IMG/VR virus record: IMGVR_UViG_2531839239_000019
From: a virus
Taxonomy: Duplodnaviria; Heunggongvirae; Uroviricota; Caudoviricetes
Length of the DNA stretch: 4,553 nt
Direction: 5' to 3' (one strand)
This document shows, in pieces, positions 2,852 through 4,553 of the stretch; the first letter of the stretch is position 1, and every line of letters starts with the position of its first letter. Below the pieces are notes generated by a model. It had not been told where the DNA came from. It did no database searches and saw only the letters and a program-made list of their open reading frames with translations. Position numbers and translations under genes: made by a program.

Positions 2852-2984
2852 GGTGTTATTCCCGATGCTTTTTAAAGTTCGCAGAATCGTATGTGTAGAA
2901 AATTAAACAAACCCTAAACAATGAGTTGAAATCTCATATTGTTAATATTTATTAATGTATGTCAGATGCGAAGGATCGTCACTG

Positions 2985-3050
2985 TATTCCCGGATTAACT
3001 ATGTCCGCAGCCCTGACAGGGAAACTCCTCTGCGGGAGTGTCCGGGAATA
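2985..3050. repeat. Nested inverted repeat (potential large stem-loop or protein-binding site) upstream of bor and downstream of the ybcV-like gene
   Basis: Outer arms tattcccgga (2985-2994) and tccgggaata (3041-3050) are a perfect 10-bp inverted repeat; inner arms ccgcag (3005-3010) and ctgcgg (3030-3035); innermost ccctg/caggg (3011-3021). Confidence 0.5.
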
Positions 3051-3142
3051 ATTAATAACGATGCACACAGGGTTTAGCGCGTACACGTATTGCATTATGC
3101 CAACGCCCCGGTGCTGACACGGAAGAAACCGGACGTGATGAT

Positions 3143-3553
3143 TTAGCGTGGAAAGATTTGTGTAGTGTTCTGAATGCTCTCAGTAAATAGTAATGAATTA
3201 TCAAAGGCATAGTAATATCTTTTATGTTCGTGGATATTTGTAACCCATCGGAAAACTCCTGCTTTAGCAAGATTTTCCCTGTATTGCTGAAATGTGATTT
3301 CTCTTGATTTCAACCTATCATAGGACGTTTCTATAAGATGCGTATTTCTTGAGAATTTAACATTCACAACCTTTTTAAGTCCTTTTATTAACACAGTGTT
3401 ATCGTTTTCTAACACAATGTGAATATTATCTGTGGCTAGATAGTAAATATAATGTGAGACATTGTGACGTTTTAGTTCAGAATAAAACAATTCACAGTTT
3501 AAATCTTTTCGCACTTGATCGAATATTTCTTTAAAAATGGCAACCTGAGCCAT
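3143..3553 (-). CDS. ybcV: Uncharacterised DUF1398-family protein (YbcV / lambda p78-like), AT-rich moron
   Basis: The ORF track gives 3143..3676 (177 aa) from a TTG start. I prefer the internal ATG at 3553 ([11 protein letters not shown]…, 136 aa) because it has an SD GGAAGG 8 nt upstream and matches the 136-aa length I recall for E. coli YbcV. About 31% GC versus about 48% in the lysis genes. Confidence 0.7.
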
Positions 3554-3838
3554 TGGTAAAACCTTCCATGTGATACGAGGGCGCGTAGTTTGCATTATCG
3601 TTTTTATCGTTTCAATCTGGTCTGACCTCTTTGTGTTTTGTTGATGATTTATGTCAAATATTAGGAATGTTTTCAATTAATAGTATTGGTTGCGTAACAA
3701 AGTGCGGTCCTGCTGGCATTCTGGAGGGAAATACAACCGACAGATGTATGTAAGGCCAACGTGCTCAAATCTTCATACAGAAAGATTTGAAGTAATATTT
3801 TAACCGCTAGATGAAGAGCAAGCGCATGGAGCGACAAA
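3554..3838. promoter_or_regulatory. Divergent intergenic region between the ybcV-like and ybcW-like genes (putative divergent promoters)
   Basis: 285-bp AT-rich spacer between divergently oriented genes. Contains a tandem tatcgttt repeat (about 3596-3612), a TTGACA hexamer on the minus strand (3653-3658) and a TAATAT hexamer on the plus strand (3793-3798). I could not assemble a convincing -35/-10 pair with correct spacing, so promoters are not located. Confidence 0.3.
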
Positions 3839-4045
3839 ATGAATAAAGAACAATCTGCTGATGATCCCTCCGTGGATCTGATTCGTGTAAAAAATATGCT
3901 TAATAGCACCATTTCTATGAGTTACCCTGATGTTGTAATTGCATGTATAGAACATAAGGTGTCTCTGGAAGCATTCAGGGCAATTGAGGCAGCGTTGGTG
4001 AAGCACGATAATAATATGAAGGATTATTCCCTGGTGGTTGACTGA
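3839..4045 (+). CDS. ybcW: Small uncharacterised protein (YbcW / lambda p79-like)
   Basis: 68 aa, [20 protein letters not shown]…; SD GGAG at 3828-3831, 7 nt before the ATG. Length and sequence fit the DLP12 YbcW protein as I recall it. Divergent from the ybcV-like gene. Confidence 0.7.
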
Positions 4046-4081
4046 TCACCATAACTGCTAATCATTCAAACTACTTAACCT

Positions 4082-4116
4082 GTGACAGAGCCAACACGCA
4101 GTCTGTCACTGTCAGG
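4082..4116. repeat. Inverted repeat / hairpin between the convergent ybcW-like and ylcI-like genes
   Basis: gtgacag (4082-4088) pairs with ctgtcac (4103-4109) around a 14-nt loop; the right arm continues as a tgtcac/tgtcag direct repeat (to 4116). No T-tract follows on either strand. Confidence 0.35.
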
Positions 4117-4209
4117 AAAGTGGTAAAACTGCAACTCAATTACTGCAATGCCCTCGTAATTAAGTGAATTTACAATATCGTCCTGTTCGGAGGGAAGAAC
4201 GCGGGATGT

Positions 4210-4404
4210 TCATTCTTCATCACTTTTAATTGATGTATATGCTCTCTTTTCTGACGTTAGCCTCCGACGGCAGGCTTCAATGACCCAGGCTGAGAAATTT
4301 CCGGACCCTTTTTGATCAAGAGCGATGTTAATTTGTTCAATCATTTGGTTAGGAAAGCGGATGTTGCGGGTTGTTGTTCTGCGGGTTCTGTTCTTCGTTG
4401 ACAT
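4210..4404 (-). CDS. ylcI: Small ribbon-helix-helix-like DNA-binding protein (YlcI / DUF3950-like)
   Basis: 64 aa with a basic N-terminus (MSTKNRTRRTTTRNIRF) followed by a pattern that looks like a beta-strand and two helices (IRFPNQMIEQINIALDQKGSGNFSAWVIEACRRRL), typical of Arc/CopG/MetJ-type RHH proteins. ATG at 4404 with GGGG about 9 nt upstream. Fold assignment is from sequence pattern only. Confidence 0.65.
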   Translation of the reverse strand: MSTKNRTRRTTTRNIRFPNQMIEQINIALDQKGSGNFSAWVIEACRRRLTSEKRAYTSIKSDEE

Positions 4405-4553
4405 GAGGTTGCCCCGTATTCAGTGTCGCTGATTTGTATTGTCTGAAGTTGTTTTTACGTTAAGTTGATGCGGATCAATTAATACGATACCTGCGTCATA
4501 ATTGATTATTTGACGTGGTTTGATGGCGTAGATGCACGTTGTGACATGTAGAT

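Follow-up and report, generated by a model that had tools for sequence, protein, structure and literature searches.

A probable mosaic of two separately inherited accessory cassettes between lysis genes and cos of a lambdoid phage

Do two small, divergently oriented genes at the right end of a lambdoid phage constitute one module, or did they come to lie side by side by separate routes? This question is raised by positions 3143-4045 of a 4,553-nucleotide stretch of viral DNA (Caudoviricetes; IMG/VR record IMGVR_UViG_2531839239_000019), which was analysed as a whole and is referred to as the window. By their sequences, the two genes can be identified with lambdap78 of phage lambda, termed ybcV in the DLP12 prophage of Escherichia coli K-12, and with lambdap79 (ybcW), both of which had been annotated before; in the following they are called V and W, respectively. 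A sequence-only reading of the window had interpreted them as a single moron module with a shared spacer. On the contrary, the locus is here proposed, with a probability of roughly 0.6, to combine two mutually independent accessory cassettes, patched together at the hot-spot that lambdoid genomes have between lysis genes and cos, whereby confidence is high with regard to the anatomy of this arrangement and low with regard to its biochemistry. The gene identities, the fold, the orientation, the mosaic breakpoints and the independent inheritance of both genes were established in the present analysis.

The window covers the right terminus of a lambdoid genome, either phage or prophage. Positions 2900-4553 are 97.9% identical to positions 46801-48452 of phage lambda and 99% identical to phage PhiR26_1, while 3143-4045 match a prophage of E. 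coli O157:H7 PV15-279 at 100%. The last position, 4553, corresponds to lambda 48452 of 48502, which places cos ~50 bp past the window end and agrees with the location between lysis genes and cos that had been assigned to the pair. The open reading frames (ORFs) hold as described earlier: V occupies 3143-3553 on the minus strand, encodes a DUF1398-type protein of 136 aa with a predicted YdfO fold and is antisense to the late operon, while W resides at 3839-4045 on the plus strand, encodes 68 aa and is co-oriented with the pR' late transcript. V is 98.5% identical to its lambda counterpart and does not differ materially from lambdap78/K-12 YbcV, YdfO and YcgX, all of which belong to DUF1398. The W protein is 100% identical to lambda lambdap79 and to DLP12 YbcW, and the gene has the same position and orientation.

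Homology breakpoints in related phages and prophages separate the two genes. In blastn comparisons, the Qin prophage and phage ev099 share with the window positions 3124/2966-3632, that is V plus 79 bp upstream of it, at 85% identity, as well as 4242-4553, comprising the 5' part of ylcI and the cos side, at 95%. Both are devoid of the 609 bp in between (3633-4241), in place of which Qin features ~50 unrelated bp; hence, in comparison to Qin, the window carries W between ylcI and V. Reciprocally, phages mEp460_ev081 and PhiR63_1 share only 3680/3721-4191, corresponding to W with its own flanks, which in these phages comes after gnsB and before cos/Nu1 with no V close by. Within the downstream flank of the W cassette (4046-4241), the right-hand breakpoints are thus situated at 4191 in the W-only phages and at 4241 in Qin and ev099. 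The latter position is inside the 3' end of the ylcI-like gene (4210-4404, minus strand; 64 aa; Pfam DUF3950, 5e-20; NCBIfam YlcI_YnfO_N), which accounts for the different lengths of YnfO (77 aa) and YlcI (64 aa).

The left-hand breakpoints fall inside the 285-bp spacer (3554-3838), which had been regarded as AT-rich and shared by a divergent pair. Divergence and length were borne out, whereas the spacer is not a shared one, and its AT-richness is mild and not above that of W, strong AT-richness being confined to V. Judged from the alignments, the spacer is a recombination junction, in which a ynfO relic is followed by a junction segment and by the upstream region proper to W. The V-proximal part (3554-3632, minus strand) is inherited with V and contains a GGAAGG Shine-Dalgarno motif (3562-3567) as well as a PdhR box (3615-3631). 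This box is the reverse complement of the codons with which ynfO of Qin ends (QVRPD-stop), and the 79 bp next to V thus constitute a relic of a ynfO-ydfO junction, comprising the 3' end of ynfO and the ynfO-ydfO intercistronic region. The junction segment (3633-3699) includes an FNR site (ATGATTTATGTCAA, 3644-3657) and is specific to the lambda/DLP12 arrangement, being absent from Qin and ev099 and mostly absent from mEp460 and PhiR63_1. The W-proximal region (3700-3838, plus strand) is inherited with W and features a GGAG Shine-Dalgarno motif (3828-3831).

Two further observations concern this junction. An ORF of 40 aa at 3631-3753 on the plus strand, annotated as a coding sequence with ribosome-binding site in the lambda imm434 record, spans the mosaic junction and gave no PHROG match; it is probably not a gene. 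Moreover, a search for repeats clearly bounding the W cassette yielded none except one imperfect inverted repeat of 12 nt near both cassette edges (3673-3684/4222-4233; TCAATTAATAGT / ACTTTTAATTGA; 92% complementary), which may be due to chance or may be a trace of cassette movement.

Among isolated-phage records, V is present in 43 and W in 40. These include V-only phages (ev099, Kati, Chlobot, PhiR49_1 and PhiR70_1) as well as W-only phages (PhiR63_1, HannyBb and mEp460_ev081), and related phages display all four arrangements, V only, W only, both and neither, at the same map position. Across 5,426 complete E. coli genomes, V was detected in 3,010 and W in 1,960, while 1,402 contain both genes contiguously; subtraction of the contiguous-pair count from the single-gene counts gives lower bounds of at least 1,608 genomes that carry V without contiguous W and at least 558 that carry W without contiguous V. 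Junction-specific counts in E. coli were blurred by the merging of nearby pieces and left unused, while scans of IMG/VR returned near-identical copies only and were hence uninformative on co-occurrence. Taken together, the breakpoints inside the spacer and the existence of V-only and W-only genomes demonstrate that V and W are inherited separately: neither consistent co-occurrence nor shared boundaries across relatives, as expected of a co-inherited module, was found, and the single module that had been postulated dissolves into two parts.

Owing to lambda contamination, both families seem more diverse and broader in host range than they are. DNA of the lambda right end, 98-99% identical, is present in genome assemblies and 'plasmids' of unrelated taxa, for instance Kitasatospora, Brevibacillus, Arcanobacterium, Staphylococcus, Synechocystis and Acinetobacter as well as a B. 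thuringiensis plasmid. The copies are often contigs of ~3.5 kb, and thousands of ~3.5-kb contigs in ENA encode frameshifted proteins; almost certainly, these copies originate from the 3.6-kb Oxford Nanopore lambda control amplicon or from lambda spike-in DNA. In a similar vein, the record MW057783.1, 'Campylobacter phage CJLB-4' (48,361 bp, labelled as a C. jejuni phage), encodes both V (98.5% identity) and W (100%) at coordinates like those of lambda and looks like lambda itself in a mislabelled or contaminated record. A scan of species genomes was dominated by lambda contamination as well, its sole diverged match being a DUF1398 copy on the chromosome of E. coli ECGI0523 (L203:5001-5397), a stop-riddled pseudogene with 49% identity to V that adjoins remnants of phage tail-fibre and terminase genes.

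The commoner partner of V is not W but the DUF3950 gene ynfO/ylcI. One alternative, possible though rather unlikely, therefore regards V and its upstream DUF3950 gene as a regulator-effector or toxin-antitoxin-like unit, which was split by the later insertion of W. In Qin, ynfO is located 57 bp upstream of ydfO in the same direction, an order annotated in many E. coli genomes, and in ev099 a co-directional ORF lies directly upstream of the V homologue. In addition, the window retains the relic of the ynfO 3' end upstream of V and a perfect FNR box upstream of ylcI, and no minus-strand terminator-like site was found between ylcI and V. However, DUF1398 relatives stand alone on the chromosome among unrelated neighbours in Klebsiella (38% identity) and Salmonella (35%) and, as YcgX, next to bluR (46%), which is a misfit with an obligate toxin. 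A toxin that is always accompanied by its antitoxin, as in type II systems, is thus not what is observed, and in the window W also separates ylcI from V. Furthermore, the difference between Qin and lambda is a replacement (50 bp versus 609 bp), for which the direction of the event is unproven, and a ribbon-helix-helix likeness of YlcI is unsupported: as an Arc/Mnt-type candidate, YlcI gave no alignment to Arc and no significant match to Pfam or to PDB sequences, and the idea was dropped as evidence.

Within the two-cassette reading, W represents the better documented half. The protein matches PHROG 657 (7.5e-48) over positions 1-68 of 68 and is acidic (isoelectric point, pI, 4.9) and cytoplasmic, while sequence searches revealed neither a Pfam family nor a PDB relative. 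An exhaustive search over 1.84 billion representative proteins produced only 199 matches, nearly all of which are frameshifted or noisy copies of lambda. Natural variants derive from E. coli, with the addition of one 52%-identical singleton of unknown source, and by these sequences the family appears to be restricted to Escherichia phages and prophages. The N-terminal 16 residues are variable, whereas the core starting with YPDVV..CI and the C-terminal YSLxVD are conserved in natural variants, the core being strictly kept down to 52% overall identity.

W is encoded on the strand of Q, S, R and Rz, and no plus-strand terminator-like site was found between Rz and W, so that the Q-antiterminated pR' transcript must cross W toward cos and the head genes; directly 3' of W, a terminator-like site was not found either. 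W is thus a passenger of the late transcript and not a gene expressed solely in the lysogen. In the literature, both V and W are described as dispensable for plaque formation of lambda (summarised in PMC10695390). In a CRISPR interference (CRISPRi) screen with dCas12a, lambdap79 was nevertheless classified as 'essential', while bor and lambdap78 on the opposite strand were non-essential (PMC10695390). Polarity of CRISPRi was documented by the authors of this screen (PMC10695390), and the score of lambdap79 would fit a polar block of the late transcript.

A phenotype of W emerges from work on the NIR-HEAT NADase defence system Vulcan, which is triggered upon infection by lambda-vir, with lambdap79 as the activator that is recognised by the HEAT-repeat sensor of the enzyme (bioRxiv 10.64898/2026.09.04.749371). 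Co-expression of lambdap79 and Vulcan is toxic, and 7 of 7 escapers had deleted lambdap79, 'likely through recombination with Qin' (bioRxiv 10.64898/2026.09.04.749371). This deletion is explained by the mosaic anatomy, since Qin shares both flanks (85% and 95%) without the cassette. Vulcan is non-toxic in strain MG1655 in the absence of infection (bioRxiv 10.64898/2026.09.04.749371), yet the DLP12 ybcW of this strain is identical to lambdap79, which suggests that the DLP12 copy is essentially silent in aerobic LB. Because W activates Vulcan, it is a target of defence rather than a defence gene, and being sensed harms the phage and does not amount to a function. The earlier suggestion of a role in anti-phage defence is thereby turned around: W alone triggers Vulcan and is what defence senses, while a PADLOC search with V and W gave noise-level matches only (best 16.7 bits to REase_II and 12.8 bits to Mem_04). 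Likewise, matches of V or W to anthranilate synthase, DPCD and XFP_C in NCBIfam and permissive Pfam searches were far below thresholds and discarded as noise. The statement that neither family has an established function accordingly remains valid for V, whereas for W the Vulcan-activator phenotype is published.

T7 Ocr, a small phage protein that acts as counter-defence DNA mimic, is known to trigger PARIS. By analogy, W may be compared to Ocr, as it is small, acidic and dispensable and its presence alone activates a suicidal defence effector; unlike Ocr, W has no known activity, and no homology between the two was detected.

Regulatory data for both genes are available from K-12 and should transfer to the window, given the 99% identity of the spacer to its DLP12 counterpart. 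Transcription-factor binding, like dispensability and the Vulcan trigger, is hereby taken from the literature. PdhR binds to the spacer, and in a pdhR mutant the mRNA of ybcV is down 10-fold and that of ybcW 8.9-fold (PMC7660256); the PdhR box at 3615-3631 is an exact match to the site determined in that study by SELEX (systematic evolution of ligands by exponential enrichment). An FNR peak in ChIP-chip (chromatin immunoprecipitation with microarray detection) was assigned to ybcW with the site TGTTGATGATTTATGTCAAATATT (PMC1802558), which is identical in the window at ~3639-3662. Moreover, Hha binds the ybcV/ybcW region, with a 17-fold induction of ybcW (PMC2408971), and both genes go up more than 1000-fold in BL21(DE3) when T4 MotB, a protein perturbing H-NS, is over-expressed (PMC7827196). 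Under microaerobic conditions, ybcV and ybcW rise modestly (PMC8910356). Finally, ydfO and ybcV are stress-induced, and over-expression of YdfO has been cited for higher oxidative-stress resistance (PMC4077768, PMC7181518).

The promoters that had been ascribed to the cassette are not visible in the sequence, where sigma-70-like elements reach only 7-8 of 12 matches, whereas the PdhR and FNR sites of K-12 are present. A relaxed scan produced a weak promoter-like TTCATA-N16/18-AATATT/TATTTT at 3772-3801. This lack of a strong sigma-70 promoter fits activator-dependent promoters that are silenced by H-NS. Between the centre of the FNR box in the spacer (3650.5) and a -10-like hexamer, TAGTAT (3681-3686), the distance is 33 bp, which in our reading would correspond to a class II geometry toward W. 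A second, perfect FNR consensus box (TTGATGCGGATCAA, 4465-4478) is palindromic, has a chance expectation of 0.03 matches in a pattern search and lies between ylcI and cos, its centre being 67.5 bp ahead of the ATG of ylcI. As near-identical K-12 sites, 'nohB' and 'nohA/ydfO', are FNR ChIP targets (PMC1802558), this box suggests that either the ylcI/ynfO(-ydfO) unit or the region near cos is controlled in response to oxygen. On the 3' side of V, a weak terminator-like hairpin is located at 3086-3061.

According to the two-cassette reading, V would be transcribed from host-controlled minus-strand promoters, and its ancestral context would be a unit of two genes, ynfO(ylcI)-ydfO, with an FNR box in front. 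V would normally be silenced by H-NS and Hha and turned on under anaerobiosis, pyruvate signalling or stress, and in the lysogen it might modulate the stress physiology of the host by binding rather than by enzymatic activity. W, in turn, constitutes a separate cassette of ~510-610 bp, which in the lambda/DLP12 arrangement sits between ylcI and V; it would be made in lytic growth from the antiterminated pR' transcript, possibly with an additional weak FNR-dependent promoter, and its native role may lie in the binding of a host or defence protein. This expression programme and the native biochemical roles are what we infer for the two genes.

Several points weigh against this picture. The expression evidence for V and W stems from the K-12 DLP12 and lambda copies and not from this exact element, and no strong or consensus sigma-70 promoter was found in the spacer, so that the promoters themselves are deduced. 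Activation by PdhR could be indirect, and the reads obtained with MotB (PMC7827196) are ambiguous because BL21(DE3) has both the DLP12 and the lambda DE3 copies. Furthermore, contiguity of V and W remains frequent (1,402 genomes), their mRNAs drop together in the pdhR mutant, and the opposite charges of V and W make a functional interaction possible.

The latter points are at the same time the arguments for a distinctly unlikely alternative, in which V and W form a co-evolved divergent moron module with a bidirectional promoter region and act jointly, for instance in superinfection exclusion, defence or at the envelope. The genes are adjacent and divergent in lambda, DLP12 and the 1,402 E. coli genomes, both transcripts decrease ~10-fold in the pdhR mutant with a single PdhR box in between (PMC7660256), and the proteins make up a basic/acidic pair (pI 9.2 and 4.9). 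Nevertheless, each gene often occurs without the other, and the spacer, inside which the breakpoints fall, is a composite of ynfO relic, junction segment and W upstream region. A joint defence function receives no PADLOC match above noise, and W alone suffices to trigger Vulcan (bioRxiv 10.64898/2026.09.04.749371). As to the envelope, a role there had been considered plausible, but neither V nor W features a signal peptide, lipobox or transmembrane helix, the maximal Kyte-Doolittle hydropathy over 19 residues being 0.43 for V and 0.93 for W.

What the two genes do have in common is an accessory character. Morons, a concept of Hendrix and colleagues exemplified by bor and lom of lambda, are small late-region genes of atypical composition at variable positions that are dispensable for lytic growth. 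V and W resemble them in being small, atypical in composition and dispensable, and V shares with bor an orientation antisense to the late operon. V and W differ from Bor, a lipoprotein that confers serum resistance and whose promoter has been mapped, in being cytoplasmic and in having no demonstrated promoter, terminator or lysogen phenotype, and W is co-oriented with late transcription. Both genes display patchy presence at the same map position and a GC content unlike that of the flanking phage genes, and in these respects they behave like moron-type accessory genes, as the sequence-only reading had proposed. The GC values that it had given, ~31% and ~38% against ~48% for the lysis genes, were close to those measured, namely 32.1% for V (29% at third codon positions), 39.6% for W and 49.3-50.9% for holin, R and Rz, with 39.3% for the spacer, 43.5% for bor and 44.1% for the whole window. 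V is the lowest-GC stretch of the window, ~4.9 standard deviations under the window mean by a binomial estimate.

That one or both ORFs are decaying, functionless remnants is very improbable. No phenotype is known for V, a decayed ydfO-like pseudogene exists in E. coli ECGI0523, and DLP12 ybcW appears to be silent in aerobic LB. On the other hand, the ratio of nonsynonymous to synonymous substitution rates (dN/dS) against diverged alleles amounts to 0.23-0.35 for V and 0.41-0.44 for W, and to 0.19 for W between two W-only phages; values below 0.5 indicate that both are real genes under purifying selection. Full-length copies reside in thousands of genomes, the W core is conserved down to 52% identity, and W is evidently made during infection, since it is sensed by Vulcan (bioRxiv 10.64898/2026.09.04.749371). 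Both starts are preceded by plausible Shine-Dalgarno motifs, GGAAGG 8 nt upstream of the V ATG at 3553 and GGAG 7 nt upstream of the W ATG. An alternative V start used in older lambda records, TTG at 3676, would yield 177 aa, with the 41 extra residues outside the DUF1398 match.

V matches Pfam DUF1398 (PF07166) over the entire profile (1-119 of 119; 2e-46; 157.4 bits versus a cutoff of 22) and is a basic (pI 9.2), cytoplasmic protein. Its predicted fold matches YdfO of Qin (PDB 2HH8), the solved member of the family; the AlphaFold2 model was built from an alignment including a Klebsiella clade, at a predicted local distance difference test (pLDDT) score of 72.8, while a run with 17 close homologues only (pLDDT 50.4) was discarded. 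Across three DUF1398 clades, the residues R14, F22, L26, Y34, Y36, N42, L94, A97-G98-V99, W102, R111, Y113, N118 and L120 are invariant. These positions are aromatic, Arg and Asn and mostly located in predicted strands, which hints at a binding surface rather than an enzyme active site. An internal duplication within V was unsupported (BLASTP of half versus half, E = 0.78), and a call of ydfO as 'essential' by transposon-directed insertion-site sequencing was not used, as it is probably an artefact, e.g. of multi-copy read mapping, and the source paper offers no reason particular to ydfO.

In databases, DUF1398 proteins are labelled 'head protein' (RefSeq, PHROG 413) or, in older records, 'putative envelope protein'. 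Neither label is supported by sequence, structure, orientation or genetics. Since V is antisense to the Q-dependent late transcript, it is not a late or virion gene, and it is dispensable in lambda, being non-essential in both the CRISPRi screen and the literature. The view of V as a virion or envelope protein, for which these labels (PHROG 413 'head protein' and phage records) are the sole argument, is close to refuted by its orientation against Q, S, R, Rz and W, the absence of transmembrane segments and signal peptides, the absence of structural similarity to virion proteins in PDB or BFVD, its dispensability (PMC10695390) and the inclusion of chromosomal genes outside prophages among its homologues. 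Despite these labels, neither V nor W is placed in a virion or lysis-accessory family, a placement that the sequence-only reading had named as one that would speak against its own interpretation.

The remainder of the window comprises the Q antiterminator (205/289-978), a LydA-type holin (1288-1605; Pfam Phage_holin_3_3, not lambda S), the R endolysin (1592-2068) and Rz/Rz1 (2065-2526 and 2285-2467), with Q, R and Rz on the strand of W. The bor gene (2558-2851; minus strand, as V; Pfam Lambda_Bor, 1.9e-30) is a separate accessory gene, and an unnamed promoter of the HK630 record, mapped by offset to ~2981-3007, is presumably that of bor. Positions 1-2066 are not lambda-like, as homology to HK630 and lambda begins at 1597 and homology to DLP12 at 2066; judging from these alignments, the window itself is a mosaic with a joint inside or just before R. 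Just 3' of Q, on the plus strand, 994-1073 gave a sub-threshold Rfam match to the Salmonella small RNA isrJ (30.4 bits versus a gathering cutoff of 37; E 0.009). This stretch closes with a terminator-like hairpin; for the present type of Q, it probably represents the late leader of pR', which is a 6S-RNA-like transcript. An Rfam search of 2900-4553 returned zero matches.

As a locus, this region was already known, given that both genes are annotated in lambda and K-12, a DUF1398 structure has been solved and a phenotype of W is published. What the present analysis adds is a dissection of the mosaic into W cassette and ynfO relic, together with two FNR boxes, the dismissal of the label 'head protein' and a warning about contamination. 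V and W are among the last genes of lambda, DLP12 and Qin without known function and are carried by about one third to one half of complete E. coli genomes. The two-cassette view alters the design of experiments: V should be approached together with ylcI/ynfO, on the minus strand and under anaerobic or de-silenced conditions, and W as a late lytic protein and trigger of immunity. A more far-reaching version, tentative and rather improbable at present, regards W as a dedicated late counter-defence or host-takeover protein that is guarded by Vulcan, and V with YlcI/YnfO as an FNR-controlled effector that alters lysogen physiology in the anaerobic gut. If this were true, the last uncharacterised corner of lambda would encode a new anti-immune factor as well as an oxygen-responsive form of lysogenic conversion.

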